Below are positions 223 through 47,676 of a stretch of 64,000 nt of DNA, piece by piece. The notes beneath the pieces were generated by a model that did not search any database, was not told the origin of the DNA, and saw only the letters and a program-made list of their open reading frames with translations. The stretch is from Lingula anatina (lineage: Eukaryota; Animalia; Brachiopoda), in the NCBI GenBank assembly GCA_051362555.1, contig CM120649.1:20164567-20228566 (forward strand), written 5' to 3'. Position 1 is the first letter of the stretch, and each line of letters starts with the position of its first letter. The position numbers and the translations under genes were made by a program.

Positions 223-2883
223 CTATACATGACTTTTGGGCCACTTGGAACCCGGCCATGCACTCGCATCTGAAGCTTCCAGCTGTGTTCACACATTTAT
301 ATTCACAGCCTCCGCCATTGGTCCTGCATTCGTCAATATCGACAGCCTCTGGAATGAATTCGAACAACAAAGGAGCAAATCAGGCACCAATTAATTCAAA
401 AGCATTATCTTATATGAAGACTGTATTTCTACCAGATGGGCGTAGTATTTAAAGATCCAATATTGCCTACTAAACCGTTCTGTGCTCGGAAGTCCCATTG
501 CCCACTCACCGTACTGTGCTCGGAAGTCCCATTGCCCACTCACCGTACTGTGCTCGGAAGTCCCATTGCCCACTCACCGTACTGTGCTCGGAAGTCCCAT
601 TGCCCACTCACCGTACTGTGCTCGGAAGTCCCATTGCCCACTCACCGTACTGTGCTCGGAAGTCCCATTGCCCACTCACCGTACTGTGCTCAGAAGTCCC
701 ATTGCCCACTCACCGTACTGTGCTCGGAAGTCCCATTGCCCACTCACCGTACTGTGCTCAGAAGTCCCATTGCCCACTCACCGTACTGTGCTCAGAAGTC
801 CCATTGCCCACTCACCGTACTTAGCTCGGAATCCGTAATAGCGTTCATGACCATCTGATGTGAAGTGGAAGGTTAAAAAGCGTCCAGCCGAGTTGATCGG
901 ATTAACCGGTCTGCCCCAGTGGCTGTTTTTTAACGTCCCCCTCAGCTTGCTGGTGCCATTGCTCTCATAGACATGGAGATAATCGCCAGCAGCTAAAGTC
1001 AAGACTGTAGTAAACGTCACCTTGATGGTGTAACCGTCTGGTACTACTATGTACCAGTAACAATCCTCGTTGTCCTGGTAGTAGGTGTTTTCACGAGCGG
1101 CAGCGAAGGTTCCAGACAGGTTGTCAAGGAGATACTTGCCATTATTGCATGTCTGAGCAAAAAGGAAACGGCCATTTAACTTTTATGACGTTCACTGTTC
1201 CATATATTTCATTAACAAAGCAAATGTTTTGCCAAAGAACTCTCCCTCAAACACGCACTATACTCTCCCTCAAACACGCGGTATACTCTCCCTCAAACAC
1301 GCGGTATACTCTCCCTCAAACACGCACTTTACTCTTCCTCAAACACGCACTTTACTCTCCCTCAAACACGCACTATACTCTCCCTCAAACACGCACTTTA
1401 CTCTCCCTCAAACACGCACTTTACTCTCCCTCAAACACGCGGTACACTCTCCCTCAAACACGCACTATACTCTCCCTCAAACACGCACTTTACTCTCCCT
1501 CAAACACGCACTATACTCTCCCTCAAACACGCACTTTACTCTCCCTCAAACACGCACTTTACTCTCCCTCAAACACGCGGTATACTCTCCCTCAAACACG
1601 CACTATACTCTCCCTCAAACACGCACTTTACTCTCCCTCAAACACGCACTTTACTCTCCCTCAAACACGCGGTATACTCTCCCTCAAACACGCACTTTAC
1701 TCTCCCTCAAACACGCGGTATACTCTCCCTCAAACACGCGGTACACTCTCCCTCAAACACGCACTATACTCTCCCTCAAACACGCGGTATACTCTCCCTC
1801 AAACACGCGGTATACTCTCCCTCAAGCACGCGGTACACTCTCCCTCAAACACGCACTATACTCTCCCTCAAACACGCGGTATACTCTCCCTCAAACACGC
1901 GGTATACTCTCCCTCAAGCACGCGGTATACTCTCCCTCAAACACGCACTATACTCTCCCTCAAACACGCACTTTACTCTCCCTCAAACACGCACTATACT
2001 CTCCCTCAAACACGCACTTTACTCTCCCTCAAACACGCACTTTACTCTCCCTCAAACACGCACTTTACTCTCCCTCAAACACGCGGTATACTCTCCCTCA
2101 AACACGCACTATACTCTCCCTCAAACACGTGGTAAACTCTCCCTCAAACTCGCGGTATTCTCTCCCTCAAACACGCACTATACTCTCCCTCAAACACGCA
2201 CTATACTCTCTCTCAAACAGGCACTATACTCTCCCTCAAACACGCGGTATACTCTCCCTCAAACACGCACTTTACTCTCCCTCAAACACGCACTATACTC
2301 TCCCTCAAACACGCACTTTACTCTCCCTCAAACACGCGGTATACTCTCCCTCAAACACGCGGTATACTCTCCCTCAAACACGCACTATACTCTCCCTCAA
2401 ACACGCACTATACTCTCCCTCAAACACGCGCTATACTCTCCCTCAAACACGCACTATACTCTCCCTCAAACACGCACTATACTCTCCCTCAAACACGCGG
2501 TATACTCTCCCTCAAACACGCACTATACTCTCCCTCAAACACGCGGTATACTCTCCCTCAAACACGCGGTATACTCTCCCTCAAACACGCACTATACTCT
2601 CCCTCAAACACGCGGTATATGCGTCAAATTTACCATTAACCCTCTGAATTATCTGGATGTACAAAACATCGGTCAATTGCGAATGCTCTACAGCATCATA
2701 TCAATCTTCCGTTAATTCCCACCACAATTTTTGTTTGGTTTAAATCCATATTTCAGTACATAAAAACATTTCGAGACTTACACCCGTCGTTACATCGTAG
2801 TACACGTTCTCTGGCGTTTCTTGGCGAACAGCGGTCGCAGCAGCGAGCAGCAAAAAACTCGCACTTGCATAAACGTACGCCAT
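223..2883 (-). CDS. Secreted CUB + calcium-binding EGF domain protein, 5' part (continues off the left edge)
   Basis: Exon 2883-2782 encodes MAYVYASASFLLLAAATAVRQETPEN..., signal-peptide-like, phase 0. Exon 1152-816 encodes TCNNGKYLLDNLSGTF...DNEDCYWYIVVPDGYTIKVTF...GDYLHVY...LTFHFTSDGHERYYGFRAKY, a CUB domain, phase 1. Exon 348-223 encodes AVDIDECRTNGGGCEYKCVNTAGSFRCECMAGFQVAQKSCI, a cbEGF domain, phase 1-1. All junctions are GT-AG and phase-compatible. Confidence 0.88.
478..830 (-). repeat. 34-bp tandem array spanning the CUB exon donor (10 donor copies)
   Basis: Unit gtactgtgctcggaagtcccattgcccactcacc; ctcacc recurs every 34 bp from 505 to 811. Confidence 0.95.
1240..2620. repeat. 23-bp minisatellite (about 60 copies) in CUB gene intron 1
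   Basis: Unit tactctccctcaaacacgc(acta/actt/ggta). Confidence 0.97.
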
Positions 2884-5969: not shown

Positions 5970-6080
5970 ATTATAATATAATATAATATAATATAATATA
6001 ATATAATATAATATAATATAATATAATGCAATATAATATAATATAATATAATATAATATAATATAATATAATATAATATG
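5970..6080. repeat. (TATAA)n pentanucleotide microsatellite
   Basis: Direct reading. Confidence 0.97.
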
Positions 6081-7544
6081 CAATCTATTTCATTGAAAGA
6101 TGACCTGTATTTATCCTTGTAGATTATTCAAAAAAGTCAAAACAAAATGTCTGCTTTCAAATTATCACTGTAACATGATGTATAAAACTAAGGTATCCAT
6201 GAGGTGGGAGATGGATTGATATAAATATAACTGTGAATTTAAAAACGTGATGCTCACAATAACAAATGTCTGTTTTCTGGCACACTAAGTGTATTTTATA
6301 GGAACACAGTTAAAAACGTTTAAGTCATATGCACACATAAATAAAAAAATCTGTAATACATAAACATTTTAGCAGGGAATAAAGAATGTATCTTTGGCAT
6401 GGGACTGAAGATGGGTCATTAAATTAACATATCTTAATAATTCACGTGGTACAAATTAAGATCAACAAACTCAACATATGTAAGAGACTAGAGTATCTGT
6501 CATATATGCTCCCTTCTAAAACCTTTAAACAATGAACTTCACAAAACATTGTGCACTCTAAAGAAAAATATATAGTTGGCTGTGGACCTCAATTTCACTA
6601 GCAATCTTATCAAATTCAATAAAATATCATAAATAGTAGTTATTTAACACAATTTTCCATACTGTAGCTTGATGTAGGCTTTCATCAGACTAAAGTTAAC
6701 AAGCTAACCATAACATGTATTTCAACTTGTCTTCAATAATTTCTAAATAAGACCCAACTATCAACAAGCTTATGAACATCTTGGCTCAATAAAATATTTT
6801 TACAGAACTTAACAAAAGGAACAAAGATCTACCCTCTCTGCTTGGTGAGATTTTCCAAGAGATTCTCTGTTATCATCAGCAAAAGCAACCAGCAGGGGTT
6901 CATACAAACCTCAGTGTTGAAAAAAATAATAAAATAAGCAAAAAACAATAAATCCACACTTAAATGTGGAGTAATCTGTAACAACTTACTATTAAAGAAA
7001 GTGCATCTTAATACATCATCCCTATCATATACGACCTGCATAGCATACCTTTCATTAGACATGGGATTACTGTAACAATAATTCAGGAGGCTGACAGAGA
7101 GAAAATGTATATTTATAGAGCAACATCTGGACATCTAGCATTACATACAAGACAAACTGTCTTCATCTTTACCTTTTTATTACATCTAAAAGTAGTTTCA
7201 GTTAAACTTGAATTAAGTTTTGTGTGAAAATTACGTGTCATATTGATAATGAAATAATTACCACCAGTATGCAACTAAAATTCAATGTACTTTAACTTAA
7301 ACATTTTAAAATGTTAATGGATCAATAAAATACAGTAATCAAAAATTTAAAAAAATCATTTCTATGTTGTATACATTCCTATTGGTATGTAATAGATATC
7401 CTTTAGTTAAATAAGTCATATCATCATGGTGAAATATCTGCAAGTATTTATACAGGAGAAATCCTTGCTGAGAATCTTACTTGAGATAAAATACAATAAT
7501 TGTTTTACCAATCACACAAAACACCATGATTAACAAAACGCTTT

Positions 7545-10500
7545 TTAAGTCTCTACCAAGTTTCCATTCAATTTTTGTGTACACGTCTGGTCAGTTTGCA
7601 CCAGGTCTGATGTCCCTGCTGCCAGTTGTTCTTTCTTCACTTCATATTTCCTGGCTACTGGCTCCAGACACAAGATGGTGGAGGCAGTTACCATGGAGAT
7701 TCCACAGATACGGAAAAGCCAGCTGTAAGACCCTGTAGTATCAGCCACCCAGCCTATATTAACATAAGAAATAAATATAACAACTGCACAATATTTCATT
7801 TCATTTTGCTCTGAAATTTTTAATAAGGACAAATTCATAAAAAAATGTCTGAAATATTTACTGCTTTCTTACACTAAAACAGGTCACTGCCTGAGCCACG
7901 CCAGAGTTCCTCATTGAAAGTTGGTGGATTTTAAATTAAAGAGAATGTAAATTTGTTCCTCCTTCCCCCTCAGCATAGCATATGCACAAACCCTAACTTT
8001 AAAGGAAAAGAGTCAGACGTACCTAAAAAAGGTGGGGATCCTACGGTAGATATAGTAGTCCCCAGGAGCAGCAAACCCATGGAGTAGGCCAACCTCTCCA
8101 GTCCTAGGACTTCTACTAAAGTGACAGCTATCACAGCGATGAAAGCCCCGCCAAACAGACCCAGACACACACAGTAAACAACCAGCCCTGGAAAGAAAAC
8201 ATCAAGTTTACATTCTGTGTTACAAGTCATTGCAAGAGAACACCAGATTAACACCAACACACTACATCTCTTTATGAAATCCAGCAAGAGATGGAGAGAC
8301 GGAGTGAAAGACAGACTCTGCACTGCTCAGATCAAAAGTAGTATATATTTATAGGGCACTTTATTTTTGTGTGTAAATATGCAACCTATTTACTTATTTA
8401 TGTAACTGTGTTGCTTACTTCTTTGTGTAACTTTATGTACATGTGTGTATATGTAGTAGTATTTGTGTAACTTTATGTACATGTGTATATGTAGTAGTAT
8501 TTGTGAAACTTTATGTACATATGTGTATATGTAGTAGTATTTGTGTAACTTTATGTACATATGTGTATATGTAGTAGTATTTGTGTAACTTTATGTACAT
8601 ATGTGTATATGTAGTAGTATTTGTGAAACTTTATGTACATATGTGTATATGTAGTAGTATTTGTGTAACTTTATGTACATATGTGTATATGTAGTAGTAT
8701 TTGTGTAACTTTACGTACATGTGTATATGTAGTAGTATTTGTGAAACTTTATGTACATGTGTATATGTAGTAGTATTTGTGTAACTTTATGTACATGTGT
8801 ATATGTAGTAGTACTTGTGTAACTTTATGTACATATGTGTATATGTAGTAGTATTTGTGTAACTTTATGTACATATGTGTATATGTAGTAGTATTTGTGT
8901 AACTTTATGTACATAGGGACAGTCGGTCATCCGGGCACTTTACCTTAGCAACCGGCATCTGGGGTAAAACAAATCGGGCAACATGGCGGATCGCATTGAC
9001 TTCTATGTAAAAGTTGGCAGACTTCGTCCGAAGATATCATACTTCACAGTGCCTGACCACTTGTGTCAGTGAGGATGAGTTATTTACCTGGTCGATTTCC
9101 TTTACAGACCTTTGTAATTAGCCGCTGCACACCTGGTCAAGAGATAAAATCGGCCTTAAATGCCGATTGTTATCTGTGGTCGGGAATCTTACAGTGGTAG
9201 ATTGCAAAGACCCATTTGCTTACCTGGATGAGCATAATATTCACATGTCTTTGAAAATAAAACCATACGGAAGCAACTAATATTATCAAGGAAGGTTTCA
9301 ATTGTACTATAATAACTGTTGATGTTGCATATATTGCTGACACATATGACGGGGTAGATTTTGCAGGCCTACTGAATTGAACCGGTACTGTTTAACTCTC
9401 AGGCACGAACAAAAGTGAAATGGTGGAAGCTTGCTGTTAACCAGGTGACACTACCAACACATTAATAAAATCTAATGGGATTTGTTAAATTTCAAAGATC
9501 CACGGAAAAGTAAACGACTGTTGCAGGCTATATATATAGGTCGTGCAAACGTGACTAAAGACGGGATTGTTGATCGAAACAAGATTTGGTCATAGCTATA
9601 CATGCACTACGAGAATTGTGTATGTGTGTATAGATTATTTTATTATAGATAAGGAGAAAGTCATTGTACCTTGTTTGGTATTTATGTTTGTCATTTGTTA
9701 CAGGAATTAATAAGTAATATTTACAAGAAATTGAGATTGCATCTTGTTTTGGCATGTGACGGTATATCAATTCTTTTAGTTAAAATTGATGGACTATAAC
9801 GTCGAACTTTTTTGTTGCAAGTTAACTGAGGGTGTTATGAAGATAAGATAAAAACGTACGTCAATATATTGACAAACCTGTGAGTTAATGTCTAAATCTT
9901 TAAGTTATCAAGTAAAATAAAAAAAAGTTGCCATAAATAAAGCGACCTTAAATGGTAAAATGACATACATGTACAGCTTTATTACCGTGTTTGTTATTCA
10001 ATTTAATTTTAACCTTGTACGTTTTGAAACTTTTAAAACGTTCTGTCTTCCATGATATTTCGCCAATTTTCGTACCAGAAAAGTGCACACTAAGATTGTA
10101 AACACTCATAGACGCATAGCTGCCAATATTAATACAGGTAACAAAAAGTTAGCAAGCAACTGCCTATGCTGTCCTATTACTATACAGACAAATTAAGAGG
10201 CCATGGGACCGATGACATTGCCCCTATCCTGTTCCCCTGGGTATTGCAGCAGCAGGTGATTTAATCACAATTTGTAGAACTCTCATTCAAATAACTTCTC
10301 AGTGTTGCACATTTTCCAGGCCTTTCTTACGATCCACGTTCTAAGAAGCCATTCCTTTTTCACCAACTTATGTACATGTATAGGCCTATACTTAAGGTGA
10401 ACATATGCGTATTCAGTTTATACCAATTTTATCCCGTAACAAGTTAAACAGTAGTTTATTACCAAGGCCTGCTAACTCAATAGTCCAGGTAAATGATTCA

Positions 10501-13500
10501 ACCCGCCAGACACAAAAGGTCAAGCACTGCCTTTGCGAAATCTTCTGCTGTAAAATTCCCGATCACAGATAACGATCGGCAGTTATGTTAGGGCCGATTT
10601 TATCTCTTTACCAGGTGTGCAGCGGCTAATTACAAAGGCCTGTAAAGGAAAACGACCAGGTAAATAACTCATCCTCACTGACACAAGTGGTCAGGCACTG
10701 TGAAGTATGATATCTTCGGACAAAGTCTGCGAACTTTTACATAGAAGTCAATGTGATCCGCCATGTTGCCCGGTTTGTTTTACCCCAGATGCCGGTTGCT
10801 AAGGCGCGTGACGTCAGCCCGACTGTCCCTATATGTGTATATGTAGTAGTTTTTGTGTAACTTTATGTACATATGTGTATATGTAGTAGTTTTTGTCCCA
10901 TAATTGTACCTTATTTGTGACGGGGTAGGCTACATGAATGAAGAAATCTGAAACTATATAGCAGCAAACTCTCATCTATGTCTTGATTTCAAAATTTGTG
11001 ATCATGTAACAAGACAGATATTGACTTGGGTGTTTTTGTCATCTTGGTTATATTTATTGACCCTGGAATAACTGACCTCAGCCACAGCCAGTATATGTAT
11101 GTAAATTACCTGTATAGCCTGTTACAAAAGAAACTCCAAATGATGAAATTCCAGTAATCATCAAAGTGATCAGCATGATATGATGTGTCTTCAGGAAGTG
11201 ATAGTCAGTAAACAGGCCAATAGAAACACGCCCCACCAGGTCTGCGCCACCTACAATAGATAAAAGAAGAGCTCCTCTGGTGTCGTCAATACCAAGACTT
11301 TTGGCCAGAGCTGGGATAAAAATAAACTGATTAAAGTATCCAAGCTGTCCAAGAACATTTGTGAAGAAAAGGACAATGAACAGTGCATTCTTGAATAAAG
11401 TAAAATCAAAAAGAGGAATTTTCTTTGTCTTTGTTGCAACCCCTTCTTGGAGGCTTGCAAAGGTGCTGCCACCTAGAGTTCTGTGACTTCCAAGTGCAGA
11501 CTGCTCATCTGAGGGCCATTCCTCTGTTGCTCTGGGGATGTTCTGAACAGAAGGAATAAATAAAAAACTACTGCTAGGAAAGACATTGATTTCTGGTGAG
11601 ATAAGATGATCCCATATCCCTCGGTGATTTAGACTTTGTTTCTGTTTTATCTGTTCTGATTGGTTAATTTCTGGATCAGACTGGTGGTGCAGAATGACAC
11701 CAGGTTTGTCTCCCTCAGTGGCAGGTTTATAGCCTACCCCAGACAGAGCTGCTTTTCTTAACAAGTGACCTGCGTCTGACTGCACTCTTGGTCTCGCATT
11801 TAATGCTGAATCAGACTGCAGCGTGGGGTCCCTTTGCACGTCCACACTGTTCCTGACAGGTCCCAGAAAGTTGTCCTGATGTTTGACCTCATCCAGCCTT
11901 TTATTTCTCAAATGCAAATTCTTTTCACCACTTATTTTTATTTCTTTTCCACCATCAGCATCACTTTCATCACGACCAGTAACAAAGTCAGCCTTCTGCT
12001 GGACTGGAGACTTCCTATACATGTTGAAAGGTCGGTAGAGAGCTCCACAAAACACCACATGAAAGCACAATCCACCCAGGATGAGGAAGGCACCTCTGTA
12101 TGTGTAGTTGTCTATAAGGAACCTGCAAGATAGTAATATAGAACATACCTGAGTAATCTTAAACAATACAGTCTTACCTCTGTATGTGTAGTTGTCTATA
12201 AGGAACCTGTAAGTTAGTAATATAGAACATACCTGAGTAATCTTAAACAATACAGTCTTACCTCTGTATGTGTAGTTGTCTATAAGGAACCTGCAAGATA
12301 GTCACATAGAACATACCTGAGTAATCTTAAACAATACAGTCTTACCTCTGTATGTGTAGTTGTCTATAAGGAACCTGCAAGATAGTCACATAGAACATAC
12401 CTGAGTGATCTAAAACAATATAGTCTTACCTCTGTATGTGTAGTTGTCTATAAGGAACCTGCATGTTAGTAATATAGAACATACCTGAGTGATCTTAAAC
12501 AATACAGTCTTACCTCTGTATGTGTAGTTGTCTATAAGGAACCTGCAAGTTAGTAATATAGAACATACCTGAGTAATTTTAAACAATACAGTCTTACCTC
12601 TGTATGTGTAGTTGTCTATAAGGAACCTGTAAGTTAGTAATATAGAACATACCTGAGTGATCTTAAACAATACAGTCTTACCTCTGTATGTGTAGTTGTC
12701 TATAAGGAACCTGCAAGTTAGTAATATAGAACATACCTGAGTAATCTTAAACAATACAGTCTTACCTCTGTATGTGTAGTTGTCTATAAGGAACCTGTAA
12801 GTTAGTAATATAGAACATACCTGAGTGATCTTAAACAATACAGTCTTACCTCTGTATGTGTAGTTGTCTATAAGGAACCTGCAAGTTAGTAATATAGAAC
12901 ATACCTGAGTAATCTTAAACAATACAGTCTTACCTCTGTATGTGTAGTTGTCTATAAGGAACCTGTAAGTTAGTAATATAGAACATACCTGAGTGATCTT
13001 AAACAATACAGTCTTACCTCTGTATGTGTAGTTGTCTATAAGGAACCTGCAAGATAGTCACATAGAACATACCTGAGTGATCTTAAACAATACAGTCTTA
13101 CCTCTATATGTGTAGTTGTCTATAAGGAACCTGCAAGTTAGTAATACACAGACAACATATATTATGCCGGAGCCAATGTGTGAAGTTTGCACTACTAACT
13201 TATCAACAGTTTTCAAGTTGGGAATTCAGTTTAATTACAAAAATACAATTTGTTTATTGGACTGGACCAACAATGAACTCACCTGGACAAGGGTGGAATA
13301 ATGAACTGGCCAACACTTCCTCCAGCCACAGAGAGACCATTGGCCAAAGCCCTCCTCTTATCAAACCAATGACCCACTACAGTCACACTGGGAGCATAGG
13401 ACATGGAAAAACCTACACCTTCAAGACAAAGTAAAGTAATAAATGATATTGTTTAGGACATGGAAAAAACTACACCTTCAAGACAAAGTAAAGTTATAAA

Positions 13501-16500
13501 ATGGTATTGTTTAGGACATGGAAAAACCTACACCTTCAAGACAAAGTAAAGTTATAAATGATATTGTTTAGGACATGGAAAACCTACACCTTCAAGATAA
13601 AGTAAAGTAATAAATGGTATTGTTTAGGACATGGAAAAATCTACACCTTCAAGACAAAGTAAACTTATAAATGGTAGTGTTTAGGACATGGAAAAATCTA
13701 CACCTTCAAGACAAAATTATTAAATGGTATTGTTTAGGACATGGAAAAACCTACACCTTCAAGATAAAGTAAACTTATAAATGGTAGTGTTTAGGACATG
13801 GAAAAATCTACACCGCAAGACAAAATTATTAAATGGTATTGTTTAGGACATGGAAAAACCTACACCTTCAAGACTAAGTAAAGTTATAAATGGTATTGTT
13901 TAGGACATGCAAAAACCTACACCTTCAAGACAAAGTAAAGTTATAAAATGGTATTGTTTAGGACACGGAAAAAAATACACCTTCAAGACAAAGTAAAGTT
14001 ATAAATGGTATTGTTTAGGACATGGAAAAACCTACACCTTCAAGACAAAGTAAAGTTATAAAATGGTATTGTTTAGGACATGGAAAAACCTACACCTTCA
14101 AGACAAAGTAAAGTTATAAATGATATTGTTTAGGACATGGAAAAATCTACACCTTCAAGACAAAGTAAAGTTATAAATGGTATTGTTTAGGACATGGAAA
14201 AATCTACACCTTCAAGACAAAGTATAGTTATAAATGGTATTGTTTAGGTCATGGAAAAACCTACACCTTCAAGACAAAGTAAAGTTATAAAATGGTATTG
14301 TTTAGGACATGGAAAAACCTACACCTTCAAGACAAAGTAAAGTTATAAATGATATTGTTTAGGACATGGAAAAATCTACACCTTCAAAACAAAGTAAAGT
14401 TATAAATGATTTTGTTTAGGACATGGAAAAATCTACACCTTCAAGACAAAGTAAAGTTATAAATGATATTGTTTAGGACATGGAAAAACCTACACCTTCA
14501 AGACAAAGTAAAGTTATAAAATGGTATAGTTTAAGACATGGAAAAACCTACACCTTCAAGACAAAGTAAAGTTATAAATGGTATTGTTGTTCTGCACTTA
14601 AGATAAAGTCAATCAAATGCCACCATATAGTTTCAAATAGATTAATATATATCTTAGAGTAAGTACTGACAAGATATAACATAATGTATACTACACAGTC
14701 CACTACTAAGGGATGTAATACTTGCCAGATATGATAGCAAAGGTGCCCAGCACATATTCCATGCTCTCAGCAAAGAAACAAAGACTGAAGCCTGTGGCAA
14801 ATAAGAAGCCTCCCACCATCACTACAGGACGGCCACCAAATCTGGCTGTCAAGCCATTGGTTAGAGGACCTGGAACAAACAACTTTATACTACGACTTGA
14901 ACCCAACTAGCTTTGCTGGTGTAATATAGTATATACTGCCACAAAACACCATCTCCATATTCACAAAACACATTCATATCACTGTTGTCTTTATATCCTC
15001 AGTTATCACAATAGTGATGTCACAACACACTCTCCATATTCTCACAACACATTCATATCACTGTTGTCTTTATATCCTCAGTTATCACAATGGTGCTGTC
15101 ACAACACACTCTCCATATTCTCACAGCAAATTCATATCACTGTTGTCTTTATATCCTCAGTTATCACAATGGTGCTGTCACAACACACTCTCCATATTCA
15201 CACAACACATTCATATCACTTTTGTCTTTATATCCTCAGTTATCACAATGGTGCTGTCACAACACACTCTCCATATTCACACAACACATTCATATCACTG
15301 TTGTCTTTATATCCTCCCTTATCACAATGGTGCTGTCACAACACACTCTCCATATTCACACAACACATTCATATCACTGTTGTCTTTATATCCTCCCTCA
15401 TCACAATGGTGCTGTCACAACACACTCTCCATATTCACACAACACATTCATATCACTGTTGTCTTTATATCCTCCCTTATCACAATGGTGCTGTCACAAC
15501 ACACTCTCCATATTCACACAACACATTCATATCACTGTTGTCTTTATATCCTCCCTTATCACAATGGTGCTGTCACGACACACTCTCCATATTCACACAA
15601 CACATTCATATCACTTTTGTCTTTATATCCTCAGTTATCACAATGGTGCTGTCACAACACACTCTCCATATTCACACAACACATTCATATCACTGTTGTC
15701 TTTATATCCTCCCTTATCACAATGGTGCTGTCACAACACACTCTCCATATTCACACAACACATTCATATCACTGTTGTCTTTATATCCTCCCTTATCACA
15801 ATGGTGCTGTCACAACACACTCTCCATATTCACACAACACATTCATATCACTGTTGTCTTTATATCCTCCCTTATCACAATGGTGCTGTCACGACACACT
15901 CTCCATATTCACACAACACATTCATATCACTGTTGTCTTTATATCCTCAGTTATCACAATGGTGCTGTCACGACACACTCTCCATATTCACACAACACAT
16001 TCATATCACTGTTGTCTTTACATCCTCAGTTATCACAATGGTGCTGTCACAACACACTCTCCATATTCACACAACACATTCATATCACTGTTGTCTTTAT
16101 ATCCTCCCTTATCACAATGGTGCTGTCACGACACACTCTCCATATTCACACAACACATTCATATCACTGTTGTCTTTATATCCTCAGTTATCACAATGGT
16201 GCTGTCACGACACACTCTCCATATTCACACAACACATTCATATCACTGTTGTCTTTACATCCTCAGTTATCACAATGGTGCTGTCACAACACACTCTCCA
16301 TATTCTCACAACACATTCATATCACTGTTGTCTTTATATCCTCAGTTATCACAATGGTGATGTGACAACACACTCTCCATATTCTCACAACACATTCATA
16401 TCACTGTTGTCTTTATATCCTCAGTTATCACAATGGTGATGTGACAACACACTCTCCATATTCTCACAACACATTCATAACACTGTTGTCTTTATATCCT

Positions 16501-18107
16501 CAGTTATCACAATGGTGCTGTCACAACACACTCTCCATATTCTCACAACACATTCATATCACTGTTGTCTTTATATCCTCAGTTATCACAATGGTGCTGT
16601 CACAACACACTCTCCATATTCTCACAACACATTCCTATCACTGTTGTCTTTACATCCTCAGTTATCACAATGGTGCTGTCACAACACACTCTCCATGTTC
16701 ACACAACACATTCATATCACTGTTGTCTTTACATCCTCAGTTATCACAATGGTGCTGTCATAACACACTCTCCATATTCTCACAACACATTCATATCACT
16801 GTTGTCTTTACATCCTCAGTTATCACAATGGTGCTGTCACAACACACTCTCCATATTCTCACAACACATTCATATCACTGTTGTCTTTATATCCTCAGTT
16901 ATCACAATGGTGCTGTCACAACACACTCTCCATGTTCACACAACACATTCATATCACTGTTGTCTTTATATCCTCAGTTATCACAATGGTGCTGTCACAA
17001 CACACTCTCCATATTCTCACAACACATTCATATCACTGTTGTCTTTACATCCTCAGTTATCACAATGGTGCTGTCACAACACACTCTCCATATTCTCACA
17101 ACACATTCATATCACTGTTGTCTTTATATCCTCAGTTATCACAATGGTGCTGTCACAACACACTCTCCATGTTCACACAACACATTCATATCACTGTTGT
17201 CTTTATATCCTCAGTTATCACAATGGTGCTGTCACAACACATTCATATCACTGTTGTCTTTATATCCTCAGTTATCACATTGGTGCTGTCACAACACACT
17301 CTCCATATTCTCACAACACATTCATATCACTGTTGTCTTTACATCCTCAGTTATCACAATGGTGCTGTCACAACACACTCTCCATATTCTCACAACACAT
17401 TCATATCACTGTTGTCTTTATATCCTCAGTTATCACAATGGTGCTGTCACAACACACATATTCTCACAACACATTCATCCTGCTGTTGTTTTCACATAAC
17501 TTACTCAACAGACACATGAGTCCCCCCAGAACAGCTGGGATCCATGCAGTCAGGGCATTACTGGTCTCAAAGGTAGTCAGAATCTCTACAAACAGGATTC
17601 CTAGGGACTTGAAAGAACCAACCACAAATATGTGCATAACAAAACAACCTGAAAGTAGCAGGGAAATATAGGGATGAGTTATCCTCTTACTATACAGTAT
17701 TTAAATATACTGAAATGTGTTTGTGCAAAATTTTGATTTTTTTTCTAGATACCCTCTGTTACCTAAAGCTGTCATCCAGGCCCATCCCTTGTCAACAGGT
17801 AGTGTGTATGTGTGTGTATGTGTGCGTGTATGTGTGTGCACATGTGTGTGTGTGTGTGCACGCACATGCGTGTGTGTGGACATAACATGTTACCTAAAAC
17901 TGTCATCCAGGCCCATCCCTTGTCAACAGGTAGTGTGTGTGTGTGTGTGTTTGGACATAACATGTTACCTAACACTGTCATCCAGGCCCATCCCTTGTCA
18001 ACAGGTAGTGCGTGTGTGTGTGTGTTTGGACATAACATGTTACCTAACACTGTCATCCAGGCCCATCCCTTATCAACAGGTAGGTGTGAAGCTGAACCAC
18101 CATCCAT
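7545..18107 (-). CDS. SLC16/monocarboxylate transporter family protein A (7 coding exons, 624 aa)
   Basis: Exons: 18107-18044 (MDGG...PVDKGWAW), 17648-17505, 14869-14726 (SPLTNGLTARFGGRPVVMVGG; GC donor), 13418-13283 (GVGFS...WFDKRRALANG), 12122-11110 (FLIDNYTYRGAFLILGG...GALYRP...DLVGR), 8187-8023, 7753-7545. They total 1875 nt, all phases match, and MCT signature motifs are present. Confidence 0.9.
8425..8914. repeat. 38-40-bp minisatellite, resuming at 10831-10895 after an insertion
   Basis: Unit atgtgtatatgtagtagtatttgtgtaactttatgtacat. Confidence 0.93.
8915..10830. mobile_element. ~1.9-kb non-autonomous DNA transposon with ~290-bp terminal inverted repeats
   Basis: Ends are (t)agggacagtcgg...ccgactgtccct(a). 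About 8940-9210 is an inverted copy of about 10530-10805. It splits a 40-bp array in register and has no transposase ORF. Confidence 0.88.
12094..13146 (-). repeat. 84-bp array of acceptor + 29-nt exon start + GTAAG donor (13 acceptor copies)
   Basis: Minus-strand unit: ttgcag GTTCCTTATAGACAACTACACATACAGAG gtaagactg...; period 84. Confidence 0.95.
13397..14590 (-). repeat. ~58-bp array spanning the MCT-A exon 4 acceptor (about 20 copies)
   Basis: Unit taggacatggaaaaacctacaccttcaagacaaagtaaagttataaatggtattgtt. Confidence 0.95.
14940..17490. repeat. 79-bp minisatellite (about 32 copies) filling MCT-A intron 2
   Basis: Period 79 (aatggtgctg at 15089, 15168, and so on). Confidence 0.97.
17758..18080 (-). 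repeat. Four copies of the MCT-A exon 1 3' end plus donor, separated by (CA)n tracts
   Basis: cctgttga(c/t)aagggatgggcctggatgacag..ttag|gtaac occurs four times. Confidence 0.92.
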
Positions 18108-32200: not shown

Positions 32201-35200
32201 CATGCTGTACTTTACATTTGGAATTGTTGGAGGTAAGAAGACAGTAATATCTGCTAAAACAATAATAATACAGTTACTGTACAACATTGTATACCATAAT
32301 ACTACCAGATTGAAGTACAGTGTATCAGGCAGTGGCTTATCTAAGAATTTCAAAACATATGAATGATTATATACCATTGGTGCACGTTTGACTCAGCTGG
32401 GCTGGACTAACCAGAGTCATTCATTGTATAGTATTGATCAGATAATTTACTGTTGAGTTGGCATGATACTTCTAGGTGAGATTAGTGTTATAAAATGCTT
32501 TTGTCCCATCAGTCTTGAATTAAGTCTCAGCTCTGTGATCATACAAAATGCATTTTAACAATATTAAAAGGAAATACGTATTATTTTCAATGCAAGCATG
32601 CCAGTTAACATCATACTATTGAAACTTCACAGTTTCTTTTTTACATGATAAATGTTACAACTGTCACAAAATAATAAGATGTTGAAGACATTTTATGGGA
32701 CAATATGTTCAATTAGAAAAACACTGTTATTTCACTTTCATCCTCTGATTTCTAATTCATTTGTTATATTGTTCTTTAGGTCTGGGATTTGGTCTGATCT
32801 ACCTCCCAGCCATCATCAGTGTGGGATTCTACTTTGATATCTGATCCATTTGTTCCATTGTTCTTTAGGTCTGGGATTTGGTCTGATCTACCTCCCGGCC
32901 ATCGTCAGTGTGGGATTCTACTTTGATATCTGATTCATTTGTTCCATTGTTCTTGAGGTCTGGGGTTTGGTCTGATCTACCTCCCAGCCATCGTCAGTGT
33001 GGGATTCTACTTTGATATCTGATTCATTTGTTCCATTGTTCTTCAGGTCTGGGGTTTGGTCTGATCTACCTCCCAGCCATCGTCAGTGTGGGATTCTATT
33101 TTGATATCTGATCCATTTGTTCCATTGTTCTTCAGGTCTAGGATTTGGTCTGATCTACCTCCCAGCCATCGTCAGTGTGGGATTCTACTTTGATATCTGA
33201 TCCATTTGTTCCATTGTTCTTCAGGTCTGGGATATGGTCTGATCTACCTCCCAGCCATCATCAGTGTGGGATTCTACTTTGATATCTGATCCATTTGTTC
33301 CATTGTTCTTCAGGTCTGGGATTTAGTCTGATCTACCTCCCAGCCATCATCAGTGTGGGATTCTACTTTGATATCTGATCCATTTGTTCCATTGTTCTTC
33401 AGGTCTGGGATATGGTCTGATCTACCTCCCAGCCATTGTCAGTGTGGGATTCTACTTTGATATCTGATCCATTTGTTCCATTGTTCTTCAGGTCTGGTGT
33501 TTGGTCTGATCTACCTCCCAGCCATCATCAGTGTGGGATTCTACTTAGATATCTGATCCATTTGCTCCATTGTTCTTCAGGTCTAGGGTTTGGTCTGATC
33601 TACCTCCCAGCCATCGTCAGTGTGGGATTCTACTTTGAGAAGCGCCGTGCGTTTGCCACTGGCCTTGCAGTGTGTGGGAGTGGGCTGGGCACCTTCATCT
33701 TTGCCCCCTTCTCCACTGAGTTAGTCCATGAGTATGGCTGGCGGGGGGCTGTCCTCATACAGGCTGGTCTTATCCTCAACTGTATTCTGTGTGGTGCTGT
33801 ATTCAGACCTTTATATTCAGCCCGAGAGCAGCGTGAAATGAGGGAGGCACGTATTGAGAAACGTTTGAGAAAGAAATTAGGTAAAATAGACAAAGATGGA
33901 GATGTTAAAGCTGCCACAGTGAAGAATGGACAGGGGTCAGCACAGAAGCCGTTGTTACGGAGCCGTAGCACTGCATCTGAGTCCCACACAGTAACAGTTC
34001 AGACACCACTGCCGCCATCTATGATCAAAAGTGAGAGTGATATTCGCAGTGGCAATGTTATAGTGGAAGACCCGCGCTCGCCCTCTGTTGTTCGTAGTCT
34101 GTCTCACCTTGGCTTTAAGCCACACCACACTGTCATGCAGAGGAAAGATGTCCTCTATGTGGGAAGTCTGCGTAATATCCCTCTTTATCGTTCCAATGTC
34201 AGCGTCTACCAGGCAAGTGTTTTGTCAATACCTCATGTAGTTCCACCTTCAGAAACAGATGAACCGGTGGGCTTCTGCACTCAGATGAAGGACTCTTTCC
34301 TTGAAATGATGGATTTCACCCTCCTCAAGGACTGGGTCTTCATCATATTTGCCATTTCCAACTTCCTGACCAGTATAGGGTTCAATGCCCCCTTCATCTA
34401 TATCCCAGACCGTGCTCTGCAGGAAGGCTATGATGAACACTCTGCGGCCTGGCTGCTGTCAGGAGTTGGCATAGGAAACACTGTAGGCAGGATTGTGTTT
34501 GGTCTGATGTCTGACTGGAAGTGGGTGAACAGACTCTGGCTGTATAACATTACCCTGACCATATGTGGTGTAGCCACCGTGTTCAGCTCTTTTATGAAGT
34601 CCTACCCTCTGATGATGGTGTATGCTTGTACATTTGGCTGCTTTATAGGTAAGTGAAGAGCAGGGGAAGAAGCTGCTTAACTTGGCATGTTCATGTCCTT
34701 TTATTTGAAGCAAGACAGATTATTATATTGGACCTCCAAAGAATAATAAATTGATTTTCATAGCATTGGAAATCTTCTGCTAGGCTAAAATGCATGCCAC
34801 AGTTGAAAATTGACCCAGTTCTATTATTTCCAATGTCCATTGGTTTTCTGATTTTTATCAGATGGACATATTTAGAGCAGCCTATTTTTGTTATGTCTTT
34901 GTTGCACAGGTAAACCATAAAGTGTTTGCACTAAATTAAAGGGGTATGTTATCTACTCAGTTTTGATGCAAATGCTGGACTGCAAGTTGAGCAGAATTTA
35001 CTGGCTGTATTTTGAAGAAAAAAGGTCCCTTTTCATTTTTTTCTTCTGTGTTTGAAATCCAGGCATAAATGTTACAGAAATGAGATAGCCAACATATTAT
35101 TTTATAATTATAACTGTCAGCTTATAAATTTACATGTTTATGTTTAGCTGATACTTCAGGTGTACCATGAGCAGAGATACTGCAGATTTGGTTTTTGACT

Positions 35201-36581
35201 TCAGATGCCTTACTTGACTGATACTTGTTACATTCCATGAGTTGAAGACTTGGTTTTTGACTTCAGGTGCCTATGTTGGCTTGACCAGTGTGATATTGGT
35301 GGACTTGCTGGGCCTGGAAAGACTGACTAGTTCCTTTGGACTTGTGCTAATGTTCCAGGGGATTGCCACACTCATTGGTCCTCCTATTGTGGGTAAGTCA
35401 TCTGTCCACATCCACCACACTCATTGGTCCTCCTATTGTGGGTAAGTCATCTGTCTACATCCACCACACTCATTGGTCCTCCTATTGTGGGTAAGTCATC
35501 TGTCTACATCCACCACACTCATTGGTCCTCCTATTGGGGGTAAGTCATCTGTCCACATCCACCACACTCATTGGTCCTCCTATTGTGGGTAAGTCATCTG
35601 TCCACATCCACCACACTCATTGGTCCTCCTATTTTGGGTAAGTCATCTGTCTACATCCACCACACTCATTGGTCCTCCTATTGTGGGTAAGTCATCTGTC
35701 CACATCCACCACCCTCATTGGTCGTCCTATTGTGGGTAAGTCATCTGTCTACATCCACCACACTCATTGGTCCTCCTATTGTGGGTAAGTCATCTGTCCA
35801 CATCCACCACACTCATTGGTCCTCCTATTGTGGGTAAGTCATCTGTCTACATCCACCACACTCGTTGGTCCTCGAGTTGTGGGTAAGTCATCTGTCTACA
35901 TCCACCACACTCATTGGTCCTCCTATTGTGGGTAAGTCATCTGTCTACATCCACCACACTCATTGGTCGTCCTGTTGTGGGTAAGTCATCTGTCTACATC
36001 CACCACACTCATTGGTCCTCCTATTGTGGGTAAGTCATCTGTCTACATCCACCACCCTCATCCATGCAAATGGTGACAGTGTACACCAAGTCAGTACACA
36101 TGCTTGTTTTATCATATATATTTATTCACACACAAGGTAATAGGTAAAAGTAGCATTTAATTTTTTATGGTTTTAAGAAAAAAAGTCCAACCAACAGTCA
36201 TCATATGACTTATTTTTGCTGATAGTGGAGGTAGCATGTTGCCAGTATTGGGGCACAGGTTTGGTATCACACAGAACTGTTTAGAACTGATGTATTACTA
36301 ATATTATTGTCACTGATGCTGATACTGTTTGTATAAGTAGAATAATAATAATAATAATATGTTATTTTTCCCCAGGATGGGTGTTTGATGGCACCAATAG
36401 TTATGATATAGCCTTCTACATCACCGGGTCCATGGTGGCCCTCAGTGGAATGATGCTGTTTGTAATCCCACAAGTGCAGCGCTGGCAGGACAAGAAGAGG
36501 GGCGTCACCAAAAAAGAGATTGAAATGGGGAAGATTGTTTCACCAGATCAACCTATAACTCCTGAAGCCCAAAGTGTTTAG
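23279..36581 (+). CDS. SLC16/monocarboxylate transporter family protein B (5 coding exons, 610 aa)
   Basis: Exons: 23279-23567 (PPDGGWGWVVV), 32089-32232, 33581-34648 (YFEKRRAFATG, YGWRGA, GAVFRP), 35267-35392, 36376-36581. They total 1833 nt and all introns are phase 1 GT-AG. Confidence 0.93.
23596..28423. repeat. 41-bp minisatellite (about 115 copies) in MCT-B intron 1
   Basis: Unit gtctatagctgtatctgtatggagaggctaactttactg(a/t)g. Confidence 0.98.
29156..29420. repeat. 52-bp tandem repeat (about 5 copies)
   Basis: caatttgggctggtgaaataac at 29156, 29208, 29260, and so on. Confidence 0.9.
31272..31400. repeat. 42-bp tandem repeat (3 copies)
   Basis: Unit aaaatatcactcagcttgaggagattctgtccaataatctta. 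Confidence 0.9.
32750..33638 (+). repeat. 89-bp array spanning the MCT-B exon 3 acceptor (10 copies)
   Basis: ag|gtct starts at 32780 and recurs every 89 bp to 33581. Confidence 0.95.
35366..36060 (+). repeat. 49-bp array spanning the MCT-B exon 4 donor (14 copies)
   Basis: g|gtaagt at 35393, recurring every 49 bp to 36030. Confidence 0.95.
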
Positions 36582-42100: not shown

Positions 42101-43070
42101 TTTACTGACTTCCAGTTTAGTTGTTATGCAGTGGTCTCTGCTCACACATTTACCCACTGTGAGAGAAGGTAATTGCCTGACTACTTAATTAGAAGTTAGT
42201 CTAATAATAGCCTAACTCATCCAGGTTCAGATCATTTTTATCTTACAAGCAGAGCCAGTCTATGGTAAGACCATTGCCATAATGATTAAGACCATGTAAG
42301 AACAACTGTGATCTGAAATCGAGATTAAGACCATTTCACTGGTGAAGCTGGTACCAGCTTTCTGTCTGCCTAAGATGTTCATCAATCTGAGTTTTCATCC
42401 AAATACTTGGTGGCCAGTCTCTCAGAATTTTTATTTGAGTCCACTGCCAGGTAAGTACACCTTACTATGACTAGATAATACTGTAACTATGGCACACATT
42501 GCATCCATGACTGACAATACTAGCAGCCGAGAAAGAAAACTACATATCACATGCCATTTCAACATTGAAATATATACCTCTGACTGAGTACACCTTGAAG
42601 GCTACATGTTAAACCTTTTATAGTTACTATATAGCACATTTTATAACCTCTTTCTACAGTCTACATCAATGCCTCTGGCATCATTTCATGTAGAATATTA
42701 GATAATTTGTCAGTATTAAATCAATACATAGTAACCTAACTTCTCTGCAAAATAATCATTTACAATAATGCACACTGTTAAATTTCACTGTTTAGATATT
42801 GCCAAAATATTCATCAATACCAATACAGGATATTATAAATCAATTAAATATGCAATGATTTCTACATTTTTTTTTCTTCAAATTATGTTTTTGTGCAGAA
42901 AAATAACCATACTGTCTATGAACATATTCTACCAATGAAAATCACTTATTGAACTCCTGTACCATTTCAATGGTGGGAGTATGTCTCATGGCTGTCTGCC
43001 AGTGTTACAGGACACATCAAATTATCTTCCTGATGGAGTCCCACTCCTCTGTGTTATAGGACACAAAAAA

Positions 43071-46000
43071 TTATCTTCCTGAAGGAGTCCCATTCCTCTG
43101 TTTTGTCTCAGCCTCCAGAAACTTCTCTCTCAATTCCTGGATTTTGGCTCTTGGGAATGATCCAGGAATTGTAAAGATGTCCTAGTAAAGACAACATATT
43201 AAATCTAAATGCAACAATAACTATTGCAGTTAAAGGAATAAGAAAAGTCAAATCTAAATGAGATTTTAGGCATTTATTGCATACTTTATCCCAATATCCA
43301 CATGTGCATGTGAAGGCTATTTGCACAAACACACACATGTACATGCACACACAAACACTTGCACAAACAAATGCACACATACGTCGTACACATGTGCACA
43401 AATACACACGTCGCACACACTCACACACACACACACACACCTGCATCAGCTGATGACACTCCAAGTTCCTTATGTCTGTGGTTGTTGCCTTGAAGTCCTT
43501 GGTGATTCCATCAAATCCCTTGGAGTGGAGAATCTGCTCCTTGTTCCTGAGGACCAGGGTGATGCCCACTCTGTGAAGAACCTTGACTCCCTCATAAAAC
43601 AAGCAGTCCCAGATCCTGAGAACTGTCTGTGTGCAATGAAATATAAAGTAACAGTTGCTGTAGGTCAGTAACTGTACTGGCAATGAAGACAGAAGCACCC
43701 TAAGCTGGAGCAGCCAGTAAATATAAACAAGTTGACTATTTGTATTGATTGTTAATGACAAGATATAAAGAGAAAACAATAGTATTTAGATATTATAAAA
43801 CAAAGCAACAAATGTAGGAGTATTCTTATGACCATATGACAGCATATATAACAGTAAAATTAGGCTCAAGACAACATGAACTATGGCACACATTCACCAA
43901 GAGTCTTAACTCAGTATCATTTGTAGACAAGGTAGGGTCAGGTTTACCTCTATAGGTAGAACATCAATAAACAGGCAGATAAACCATCTGGTGAAGACGA
44001 CCGCCCATGGTACACCCTCTCTCTCCACATTATCATAGATCCCTGCTTCCTTCTGCCTGCAACATAACACCTTGTATTATATGATAATATGACTTAAACT
44101 ACACCCTCTCTCACTACATAATCATATATCCCTGCCTCCTTCTGCCTGCAACATAACACCTTGTATTATATGATCATATGACTTAAACTAAGAAAATACA
44201 ATGCAGTCTTTATCTGGGAGCTTTATTAGATATTGGGACTGTCACAGTACTTCACGTCACTATGGAGTATGCTCAGATGTTATTAACAGTACTCTCCCAA
44301 CAATAGGTCTGTACCAAGACTACCCAATTATAAGACTGCCGATTTTTAAGACTGCCCAATAGTAGGACTGCCTAATTACAGGACTGTCCTAAGACTGCCC
44401 AATTTTTGGGACTGCCCAATAAAACTTCTGAACAAGGACTGTTCAATAATAGGACTGCCCAATAATAGTACTGCCCTACAACTGCCCAATGGCATAGTTT
44501 TCATCTTACCTTATAAGCTCTGCTAACACTGCAATTTCTGCCTTCAGGCCTGCCATACCTGGGCTGTAGAGATCTGGAAAATATATTAATATATAATAGC
44601 ATTATATATATTACCTGACAATATCTGTGTCATCAAGGTGTGTAATATTACCTGGCAATATCTGTGTAATCAAGGTGTCTAATATTACCTGGCAATATCT
44701 GTGTAATCAAGGTGTCTAATATTACCTGACAATATCTGTGTAATCAAGGTGTCTAATATTACCTGGCAATATCTGTGTGATCAAGGTGTCTAATAACCAA
44801 AACGTTTTCTGTTCATCTCGCAAGATTAGCAGCATCACCCCTACGATGAAGTTAAATCCCTGAAAACAAACAGTTATCATTATTACTAATTCAGAATCAA
44901 CTGATGTGTTTATCAACAGAAAATCGTATTCTAAACACAATCCATAGGGAGGAAAATTAAAAGAGAGAAAAACTCAGATGTAGGTTACTAATTAACAACT
45001 GGAATAATAAATATGTACTCATTTGTGTGTCATATTCCATATTTGAACATTTCAATATTTGAAAACATACACTGCTAATATATATACTGAAATATAGTAT
45101 AAATAAATATGGCAAATCCTGAATGCATATCATAAGACTAAGATAAGTAATAAACATCCCCTCCCTCACCTCTAAGAAACAAACAAACCACAATTAAACC
45201 ATAACTGACTACCTGACAATAGCCAATCTTGGGATTCTTCAGAGCAAATGCTGTGAGGACATTGCACAGTGGCTGGCGTAGACCTGTCGGGTCCAAGGTA
45301 TCACAGAAATAGATATTTTCAGGGAATGTTCTATGGAGATCTGCAATGTTTATATAACATGCTTGGAAAAAAGGCATACTTAGTATTCTGTTGTTATTAT
45401 TTGTATTAAGTAATATTTGGCAGGTTTTGCAATATGAAAAAAATTGATAACACCAGTAAAAGTTAGTCAACTAAAACTAAAGACAAGCAATATACATTTA
45501 AACAAGACCAACAAAATACTACATTAAGCAGAAAGGCCCTCAGAGAGCAGAGATCTCTGCCAAGGTAGCCCAATTGTCATTCTTTATTTACAAATCATAT
45601 CACAGATATACTACACAGTCAAGGCATTTAACTCAGAGAGCAGAGATCTCTGCCAAGGCAGCCCAATTGTCATTCTTTATTTACAAATCATATCACAGAT
45701 ATACTACACAGTCAAGGCATTTAACTCAGAGAGCAGAGATCTCTGCCAAGGCAGCCCAATTGTCATTCTTTATTTACAAATCATATCACAGATATACTAC
45801 ACAGTCAAGGCATTTAACTCAGAGAGCAGAGATCTCTGCCAAGACAGCCCAATTGTCATTCTTTATTTACAAATCATATCACAGATATACTACACAGTCA
45901 AGGCATTTAACTCAGAGAGCAGAGATCTCTGCCAAGGTAGCCCAATTGTCATTCTTTATTTACAAATCATATCACAGATATACTACACAGTCAAGGCATT

Positions 46001-47676
46001 TAACTCAGAGAGCAGAGATCTCTGCCAAGGTAGCCCAATTGTTATTATTTATTTACAAATCATATCACAGATATACTACACAGTCAAGGCATTTAACTCA
46101 GAGAGCAGAGATCTCTGCCAAGACAGCCCAATTGTCATTCTTTATTTACAAATCATATCACAGATATACTATACAGTCAAGGCATTTAATTGATGCATCA
46201 GCAGGATACCATGGCAACAGCAGGTGGCAGTGTGGGTGAAATACAGGCCACTCTGTAACATATTGAAAAGCTAGTTTTCCTATCCAAGTGTTCTGAAGTA
46301 GTTATTTGGGACAGATTAATTTCATAAATGCTGCGTCAGTCATAGGTATACTGTAACTGCAGACTTCTAAATATATCAAATATTCATTTGAAGCAAGAAG
46401 GGCAAAGCTGCTGACACATACAAGACAGGCTAAAGGTCAATGTTGCTAGAGTTCTTACCTTGGTCAATGGACTCCTTAACTTCTGACTGTGGTTGTTGAG
46501 TGAGGAGGTGTTGGTAGAGTTCTTACCTTGGTCAATGGACTCCTTAACTTCTGGCTGTGGTTGTTGAGTGAGGAGGTGTTGGTAGAGTTCTTACCTTGGT
46601 CAATGGACTCCTTGACTTCTGGCTGTGGCTGTTGAGTCAGGAGGTGTTGGTAGAGCTGTGGTTGGGAGTCCATCCTCATCTGGGCTCCACTGAGGGTCAT
46701 CCAGGCAAGTGGCCTGAACTCTTTGGGAATGCCTTTACGTACATATCTCTTAACTACAAAGTAGAAAAAGCAAGTTACATGTATAGTAAAAAAAGACTCC
46801 AGTTACACATATAATCTACTAATATATCAAACAAAATGGAATATTAAATACAAAAGACAACCTATGATAATAAAAGAAATGCGCGGCCTTGTTCAAATGA
46901 ATAATAGGTGGTATGAACATACAAGTAGTAGCATATGCTTTGGGCAGTACTTTGAAAAAGCAAAATGAATTTCAAAAGGGTGACATTAATATAAATAATT
47001 AATATATCTCCTGTTTTTTTTTCTAAATAACACTAAATCGACTCAATAGATTTATCACAGAAATTCCAGGGGATTCTTAAGAATCGCATTACCAGTTCTG
47101 TTCTTCTTCACTTTTTCCTTGTGTCCTAGTAAACTTTTCCATTTCCTGCTCCTCCTGGCGAGTACTTGGATATAGCTGGACTCATAAGCATCGTATGCAG
47201 AGAAATCAAAGTCCTCCGGCCACTCAAAGCCGTACTGGTCTGTCCGCGACCTAGAGGAAAATAGCTACTGCTTCAGCAAAATACATGTACTAGTAAATGT
47301 TTGTCATTAAAATAAAATGGTTGGTTTCTTATATAACGTTAAATTTTCAAACCACTCGCTTTTGTGAATTTCAATGGAATCAATCTGGTATGAATAACCT
47401 CTTGAAAATGTCTTAACAATTAAAACATTTGAAGAAAGTTGTCCTGTGAGGCTGTGTCAATTATCATGTGCTGAAATCGTCCTCTTGCTGTAGCTGCGCC
47501 GTTGATAGAAAAGTTTTTGCTAAATCAAAGGTCAAATAAGGGCACCCTACACACTATATGTATCTCAGTTGATATATCTGGTACATACATACAAAATTAA
47601 TTTCATCAAAAAATTCTATAAATGATCTGAAACCGGTAAATCCTACATTGAAATCACTTCCTTACCGTTCTGCCAT
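43071..47676 (-). CDS. GRTP1: Growth hormone-regulated TBC protein 1 (TBC1D6) homologue, Rab-GAP, 9 exons, 340 aa
   Basis: Exons: 47676-47666, 47250-47093 (DQYGFEWPEDFD), 46753-46595 (VKRYVRKGIP), 45340-45213 (DLHRTFP...GYCQ), 44859-44763 (GFNF...FWLL), 44573-44510, 44056-43948 (RWFICLFIDVLPIE), 43626-43441 (TVLRIWDCLFYEG), 43181-43071. They total 1023 nt and the TBC Arg and Gln fingers are intact. The orthology call rests on recalled similarity to human GRTP1. Confidence 0.9.
44610..44795 (-). repeat. 37-bp array spanning the GRTP1 exon 5 donor (5 copies)
   Basis: ttacctg recurs every 37 bp; last exonic bases at 44763, 44726, 44689, 44652, 44615. Confidence 0.92.
45539..46190. repeat. 93-bp tandem repeat (7 copies) in GRTP1 intron 3
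   Basis: 31-aa periodicity in ORF 45574..46239. Confidence 0.95.
46447..46655 (-). repeat. 68-bp array spanning the GRTP1 exon 3 donor (3 copies)
   Basis: Last exonic bases at 46595, 46527, 46459. Confidence 0.92.

Follow-up and report, generated by a model that had tools for sequence, protein, structure and literature searches.

Tandem arrays sit directly on exon-intron borders in all four spliced genes of a 64,000-nucleotide stretch of the genome of the brachiopod Lingula anatina (assembly GCA_051362555.1, contig CM120649.1, positions 20,164,567 to 20,228,566 of the forward strand; this whole stretch is referred to below as the window). The genes, which we modelled from the window with open frames, are CUB-EGF, MCT-A, MCT-B and a GRTP1-like gene (GRTP1 below), which between them contribute 41 coding splice sites, made up of 21 donors and 20 acceptors. 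Nine of these sites lie inside arrays detected by Tandem Repeats Finder (TRF), and a tenth, the MCT-B acceptor at 35267, which TRF overlooked and a junction probe detected, belongs to a two-copy duplication that has decayed; donors and acceptors are affected equally, five of each, as the original prediction of about 10 among about 41 sites, made from the letters of the sequence, had anticipated. The interpretation that we favor, with moderate confidence, is that the arrays are "mirage" minisatellites, that is, products of a general duplication process that are likely kept since the exon-adjacent copy gives a normal mRNA, with an approximately twofold excess at splice junctions.

Each array unit combines 16–61 nt of exon with 4–53 nt of intron, and the units of different arrays appear unrelated in sequence on inspection, in agreement with the earlier reading. 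The real splice site is the terminal, exon-proximal copy in every case, and the GT or AG is kept in 72 of the 73 extra copies of the nine TRF arrays, which bears out the claim that the units hold coding sequence together with an intact splice signal. The copy numbers first proposed were mostly accurate, the exceptions being the CUB donor array, which has 11 units rather than 10, and the MCT-A donor array, which has three units and a decayed fourth. A further claim, that only the exon-proximal copy yields the normal protein, was upheld with a small qualification: splicing at the nearest decoy would cause a frameshift at seven of the ten sites and introduce an in-frame stop at one, but at the other two it would produce an open in-frame insertion (+25 aa at MCT-A donor 1 and +28 aa at MCT-A acceptor 5). 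Two of the array-bearing acceptors open exons longer than 1 kb. The favored interpretation finds support at the end of the GRTP1 coding sequence, where a duplication of the same kind spans the stop codon even though no splice site is present at that edge.

The original prediction had suggested confirming the arrays in raw genomic data. Four of the ten were examined in contigs of the DNA runs X1, X4 and X7, and all four were present; these are short-read contigs, which show that an array is present but not how many copies it has, and the assembly may itself have been built from one of the runs. At MCT-B acceptor 3 the joint between successive 89-bp units had a depth of 768 + 102 in X1, compared with 91 in the flank, and of 292 in X7, compared with 48–208 in the flank. 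The tandem joint of the 49-bp unit at MCT-B donor 4 was represented by loose ends in X1 and X7, and X4 contigs included pieces spanning both short GRTP1 arrays (37-bp and 89-bp) with raised summed depth. Because the runs come from two studies, these four arrays are not assembly errors, and the structured variants carried by array units likewise argue against mis-assembly. The exact copy numbers are those of the assembly, and we consider it extremely improbable that the arrays are an assembly artefact.

To establish which copy is spliced, we used raw RNA runs deposited under the same species label (three runs for GRTP1, with 6–25% of each run read) and listed joints that reached 3 reads from 2 starts. 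The first copy was joined in 27 reads at GRTP1 donor 5, the last (exon-proximal) copy was joined in 16 reads at GRTP1 acceptor 7, and at GRTP1 donor 3 a letter specific to the first copy was found in 15 reads ending at acceptor 4; at these three arrays no decoy joint reached the listing threshold in the three runs. The sites tested in this way are three of the ten, all of them in GRTP1 and with 1, 2 and 4 decoys, and the arrays of 10–21 units fall outside this result. The proposal that the spliceosome ignores the decoys therefore agrees with the proximal splicing seen at these arrays, but steady-state RNA does not distinguish decoys that are ignored from decoys that are used and then destroyed by nonsense-mediated decay (NMD). 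At MCT-B, no spliced reads were present at the tested sites among the six reads of run X13, and 16 of the 18 reads of run X16 derive from a paralog that is less than 90% alike.

We then asked whether junctions are covered more often than expected, using statistics that all come from a single window picked for its pattern, such that the P values overstate the case. After merging, the rows reported by TRF correspond to 41 arrays that occupy 21,999 of the 64,000 bases (34%); 38 of these have units of at least 10 nt, and 29 of the 38 lie away from splice sites. In the null model each array was collapsed to one unit and placed at random, though never wholly in coding sequence, and the junctions covered were counted. 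Nine junctions were covered, compared with an expectation of 1.86 when arrays were placed across the whole window (P = 5e-5). Shuffling within genes, a check that had been proposed at genome-wide scale and that we ran in the window, also yielded an excess: 3.5 were expected and 9 of 21 arrays were seen (P = 0.003). With GC weighting the within-gene expectation was 4.0 (P = 0.007); with a transposon-like insert and the duplicate array belonging to it left out, it was 4.5 versus 9 of 20 (P = 0.014); and re-placing each array in its own intron raised it to 5.4 versus 9 of 20 (P = 0.03). All within-gene nulls taken together gave about 3.1–5.5 expected junctions, corresponding to a 1.6- to 2.9-fold excess. 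The chance expectation is this high because introns are short once their arrays are collapsed (median approximately 310 nt). GC bias was rejected as the whole cause, as it moved the expectation only from 3.5 to 4.0–4.4 (GC preference, P = 0.07). Arrays as a class lie within genes more often than expected (21 of 38, P = 0.04; P = 0.23 for the non-splice arrays alone).

The anatomy of the arrays offers some indication of how they arose. Among arrays with a period of at least 20, and excluding the one cut by the window end, the nine at splice sites did not differ from the 21 others in unit length (P = 0.23) or end overlap (P = 0.30). The original prediction had left open whether a duplication process is aimed at splice junctions or a general one is filtered by selection, and these comparisons, together with the 29 of 38 arrays lying off splice sites, fit the second better, although the twofold excess is left over. 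The end overlaps of the splice arrays are 0, 2, 3, 3, 10, 11, 18, 47 and 69 nt, values to be read without a chance-overlap null and with array ends blurred by later turnover; the overlaps of 0–18 nt in seven of the nine would be compatible with microhomology-mediated duplication followed by expansion. The position of the junction within the unit is unrestricted (exon share 0.37–0.90). One of 18 GT/AG columns varies, compared with 82 of 562 other columns (P = 0.49), and we therefore see no selection on the decoys.

Under the interpretation that we favor, a piece of 30–90 nt flanked by short direct repeats would first be duplicated, and slippage or unequal exchange would then expand the array. 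With 38 minisatellites occupying a third of the window, duplication is very active here, and because introns are also short, many duplications must strike exon borders. Those lying wholly in exons would be purged, while those at a coding edge would persist, since splicing at the first donor or the last acceptor gives back the original exon. Splicing of the exon-proximal copy was observed at the three GRTP1 arrays; for donors this may reflect a first-come choice, by analogy with human F7, and for acceptors it may reflect exon definition, while NMD may act at the 8 of 10 sites, donors and acceptors alike, where the nearest decoy breaks the frame. Exon definition combined with NMD would sit least easily with the two acceptors at the start of exons longer than 1 kb. 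The approximately twofold border excess probably stems from a higher rate of seeding within or next to exons, or from exon-anchored arrays being shielded from deletion, and probably not from any marking of the sites by the spliceosome.

Several observations weigh against this account. The excess persists under every null that we applied, including 12 variants (P from 5e-5 to 0.04), and array cover declines sharply with distance from the junction, from 9 of 41 at the junction itself to 5 of 41 at 25 nt and 1–3 of 39 at 50–150 nt into the intron; chance plus filtering is therefore insufficient to explain all hits, and the residual within-gene excess means that there may be a mild bias toward splice junctions besides the general generator. 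The end overlaps of 47 and 69 nt in two arrays are not directly explained by simple microhomology. Some RNA also derives from inside the arrays: in X18 six reads from 2 starts lie within the GRTP1 37-bp array, and in X13 four of the six MCT-B reads (2 starts) cross the joint of the 89-bp unit, with no cover of the exon body. These reads may represent either unspliced RNA or decoy use.

The simplest alternative is that there is no bias at all, and that minisatellite density, short introns and the choice of window account for the count. The most conservative null, in which each array is confined to its own intron, raises the expectation to 5.4 against the 9 seen, and a window singled out from very many inflates any P value; given that an excess appears in all 12 null variants and in the other within-gene and GC nulls, we nevertheless think this unlikely, while taking it seriously. 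The opposite possibility is a generator targeted to splice junctions, in which lesions linked to transcription or the spliceosome (R-loops or pausing at borders) drive germ-line duplications. The presence of arrays at 9–10 of the 41 sites and in all four spliced genes would be consistent with such a process, as would the peak of cover at the junction, its fall within 50 nt, and the excess over the within-gene expectation. The splice arrays are anatomically like the others, however, their junctions lie anywhere in the unit, donors and acceptors are equally affected, a stop-codon edge is affected too, and the enrichment is about twofold, all of which makes this explanation rather improbable in our view. 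We assign a similarly low likelihood to a broader scenario for Lingula and other repeat-rich marine invertebrates, in which germ-line duplication aimed at exon borders by transcription- or spliceosome-linked lesions would leave decoy arrays at approximately a quarter of splice sites genome-wide. Some of these would become obligatory spacers (as at GRTP1 intron 5) or stacks of poison pseudo-exons (as with the 84-bp unit of MCT-A), which would steadily feed intron sliding and the control of splicing.

One may also postulate that the copies are functional, tuning expression by unproductive or stepwise (recursive) splicing or serving as needed spacers. This would fit the retention of GT or AG in nearly all decoys, the few RNA reads inside arrays, a GRTP1 intron 5 that would measure 41 nt without its extra units, and the effect of VNTR (variable number tandem repeat) length on splicing that has been described for human ABCA7 (PMC5954066). 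The 84-bp unit, moreover, makes a 29-nt pseudo-exon with a strong donor, scoring 11.1 compared with a median of 6.9 for real donors, and a second AG|GT. Yet GT/AG retention is no higher than that of other columns, the donors rebuilt at decoy acceptors are weak (-1.9 to 4.1), the AG|GT (proto-splice) context is not enriched in the window (7 of 10 array sites versus 15 of 31 others, P = 0.29), and introns with splice arrays, once collapsed, are not significantly shorter (P = 0.15). A functional role for the arrays as a class thus appears very unlikely. Recursive splicing through the rebuilt donors in particular was not supported: with a matrix trained on the window, under which real donors have a minimum of 3.6, they scored 0.2, 2.0, -1.9, 4.1 and 0.7, four of the five falling below the weakest real donor.

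Some individual arrays have further peculiarities. In the inner 84-bp units at MCT-A acceptor 5 (12092-13146, minus strand), the junction of one unit with the next creates a strong donor that closes the predicted 29-nt pseudo-exon. A second AG|GTATGT lies 29 nt further, a separate candidate recursive site with a score of 9.7. Part of the filler in this unit matches positions 31554-31583 in MCT-B intron 1 with 4 mismatches in 30, and the filler may therefore derive from a dispersed repeat. GRTP1 intron 5 (44574-44762, minus strand) is 189 nt long and would retain 41 nt if its four extra units were removed; the intron may by now depend on the array for sufficient length. The 21-unit acceptor array of MCT-A lies in an intron whose modelled donor is GC (CTG|GCAAGT at 14725, minus strand); this donor was chosen because the frame is otherwise lost. 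The three largest intragenic arrays, at 14945-17478 (79-bp units), 23596-28423 (41-bp) and 1239-2613 (23-bp), are free of splice sites and end 25, 27 and 85 nt from one, respectively.

Two of the GRTP1 arrays may also vary among runs. Run X18 carries a variant unit at the 37-bp array, and RNA run X12 has a further copy of the stop-codon duplication (a joint going back 47; 6 reads, 4 starts). Across 43083-45288, X18 differs from the window by many fixed exonic differences, and none of its 34 reads is 99% alike; this suggests that X18 represents a distinct population or a cryptic species under the same label.

Arrays of this type are known from amphioxus, where the one in Adh3 is reportedly unstable in length in somatic tissue. 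The name "mirage" is already attached to them: published accounts describe such minisatellites in amphioxus Adh3, the globins BflGb6 and BflGb9, troponin C and PGBD5 (PMC3087553, PMC3902484), and the later mirage literature cites Canestro 2002 as the original Adh3 paper. According to these accounts the amphioxus units, like those of Lingula, span the exon-intron border on its 5' or 3' side, with splice signals mostly intact and a normal mRNA produced (in Lingula, at the three GRTP1 arrays); a further likeness is that end copies diverge from inner ones, and copy number is described as variable in amphioxus. Unit lengths are 10–160 bp in amphioxus and 34–89 bp in Lingula. The Lingula arrays differ in belonging to Brachiopoda, in occurring in four neighboring genes where they could be counted against a null, and in reaching 21 units.

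Comparable arrangements have been described in human genes. In the 37-bp VNTR of F7 intron 7, the first unit holds the real donor and identical silent donors follow; experiments described for this locus showed a first-come choice in which the most upstream donor alone is used (PMC1557585). GRTP1 donor 5 has the same arrangement with the same unit length. The F7 case is a single locus on the donor side, with pseudo-sites that mutation experiments showed to be functional, whereas half of the Lingula cases are acceptors. The 25-bp VNTR of ABCA7 intron 18 is described as resembling the Lingula arrays in that its unit starts at the donor GT, the array fills the intron and its length is polymorphic, with use of the second unit and length-dependent splicing changes reported; unlike the Lingula units, its unit has no exon sequence before the GT (PMC5954066). 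Internal tandem repeats at exon-intron boundaries are also reported from human segmental duplications (PMC2812944), and tandem duplication has been considered as a way in which introns are gained (Rogers 1989, Zhuo 2007, Gao and Lynch 2009, as cited in PMC3087553). As in Lingula, tandem duplication over a splice boundary supplies new splice sites in these cases, but there it creates new introns or isoforms, whereas the Lingula arrays gave no evidence of a new intron. Microhomology-mediated tandem duplications are described as mostly neutral and depleted from coding regions, with short direct repeats at their ends, as we propose for Lingula (PMC13167724); the words splice, exon and intron are absent from the main text of that paper, and the mechanism for Lingula is our own inference.

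The original prediction knew of no description of such arrays as a genome-wide system. This held to the extent that neither a genome-wide enrichment test nor a Lingula report of such arrays was found in the open literature (subscription papers lay outside the search), but the type itself had already been named. The main-text passages on repeats, introns and heterozygosity in the Lingula genome paper do not mention such arrays (PMC4595640; its supplements were outside the search). The Lingula arrays are therefore a dense example of a type already described, and within the literature searched they are the first from brachiopods, such that mirage repeats now extend to that phylum. They offer a natural panel for studying how, among as many as 21 near-identical acceptors, the spliceosome settles on the real one although it is the last to be transcribed. 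Gene prediction and read mapping can be led astray by such arrays. Strong junction-specific enrichment across the genome, if true, would suggest that splicing and germ-line mutation are linked and that introns have a working way to slide; the window alone shows an approximately twofold effect.

Table 1 Genes, arrays and duplications described in the text, in window coordinates.
Feature	Position	Strand	Description
CUB-EGF gene		-	3 modelled exons in window: 816..1152 (CUB domain), 2883-2782, 348-223; gene continues past window start
CUB donor 815 array	462..831	-	34 bp, 11 units; unit = 16 nt exon + 18 nt intron
MCT-A gene	7543..18107	-	MFS monocarboxylate-transporter-like; 7 coding exons, ~624 aa; modelled
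MCT-A acceptor 5 (12122) array	12092..13146	-	84 bp, 13 units
MCT-A acceptor 4 (13418) array	13397..14588	-	57 bp, 21 units; AG gone from one decoy
MCT-A donor 1 (18043) array	17762..18088	-	75 bp, 3 units + decayed fourth
MCT-B gene	23279..36581	+	5 coding exons, 610 aa; modelled
MCT-B acceptor 3 (33581) array	32746..33638	+	89 bp, 10 units
MCT-B acceptor 4 (35267) decayed duplication	35188..35290	+	62 nt, two copies
MCT-B donor 4 (35393) array	35366..36061	+	49 bp, 14 units; end overlap 10 nt
GRTP1-like gene (RabGAP-TBC)	43071..47676	-	9 coding exons, 340 aa
GRTP1 stop-codon duplication	43002..43101	-	49 bp, two copies; coding edge without splice site; 1 of 4 stop codons in window
GRTP1 acceptor 7 (44056) duplication	44011..44190	-	89 bp, two copies
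GRTP1 donor 5 (44762) array	44608..44795	-	37 bp, 5 units
GRTP1 donor 3 (46594) array	46441..46655	-	68 bp, 3 units
Ras-family GTPase	49590-50129	+	single coding exon, 179 aa; Pfam Ras; head-to-head with GRTP1; array-free

The gene models on which the splice-site count depends have Pfam support (CUB, EGF_CA, MFS_1 and RabGAP-TBC), and their introns are all GT-AG with the exception of MCT-A intron 3 (GC-AG). At 608 of 610 residues the spliced MCT-B model agrees with a database protein that carries the name Lingula anatina MCT12 (monocarboxylate transporter 12), and the large MCT-B exon is 100% identical to that protein. In GRTP1, introns 4–7 are backed by RNA joints and introns 3 and 8 by loose ends. 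Intron 6 of this gene divides a 173-nt stretch into 64 + 109 nt (44057-44509, minus strand), a stretch that corresponds to a single exon in human GRTP1. The neighboring Ras-family GTPase is presumably Rap2-like.

Other repeats in the window include an element at 8943-10804 with 217-nt inverted ends (96% alike), which interrupts a 40-bp minisatellite of MCT-A intron 5 and is probably a non-autonomous DNA transposon. A long dispersed repeat, present in two copies at 55170-58230, holds 161-bp and 159-bp tandem units and looks like a transposon-borne satellite. Short inverted-repeat elements resembling MITEs (miniature inverted-repeat transposable elements) are found at 5015-5147 (55-nt perfect arms), 4666-4767 (48-nt arms) and 20494-20639 (36-nt arms of 16-bp units).

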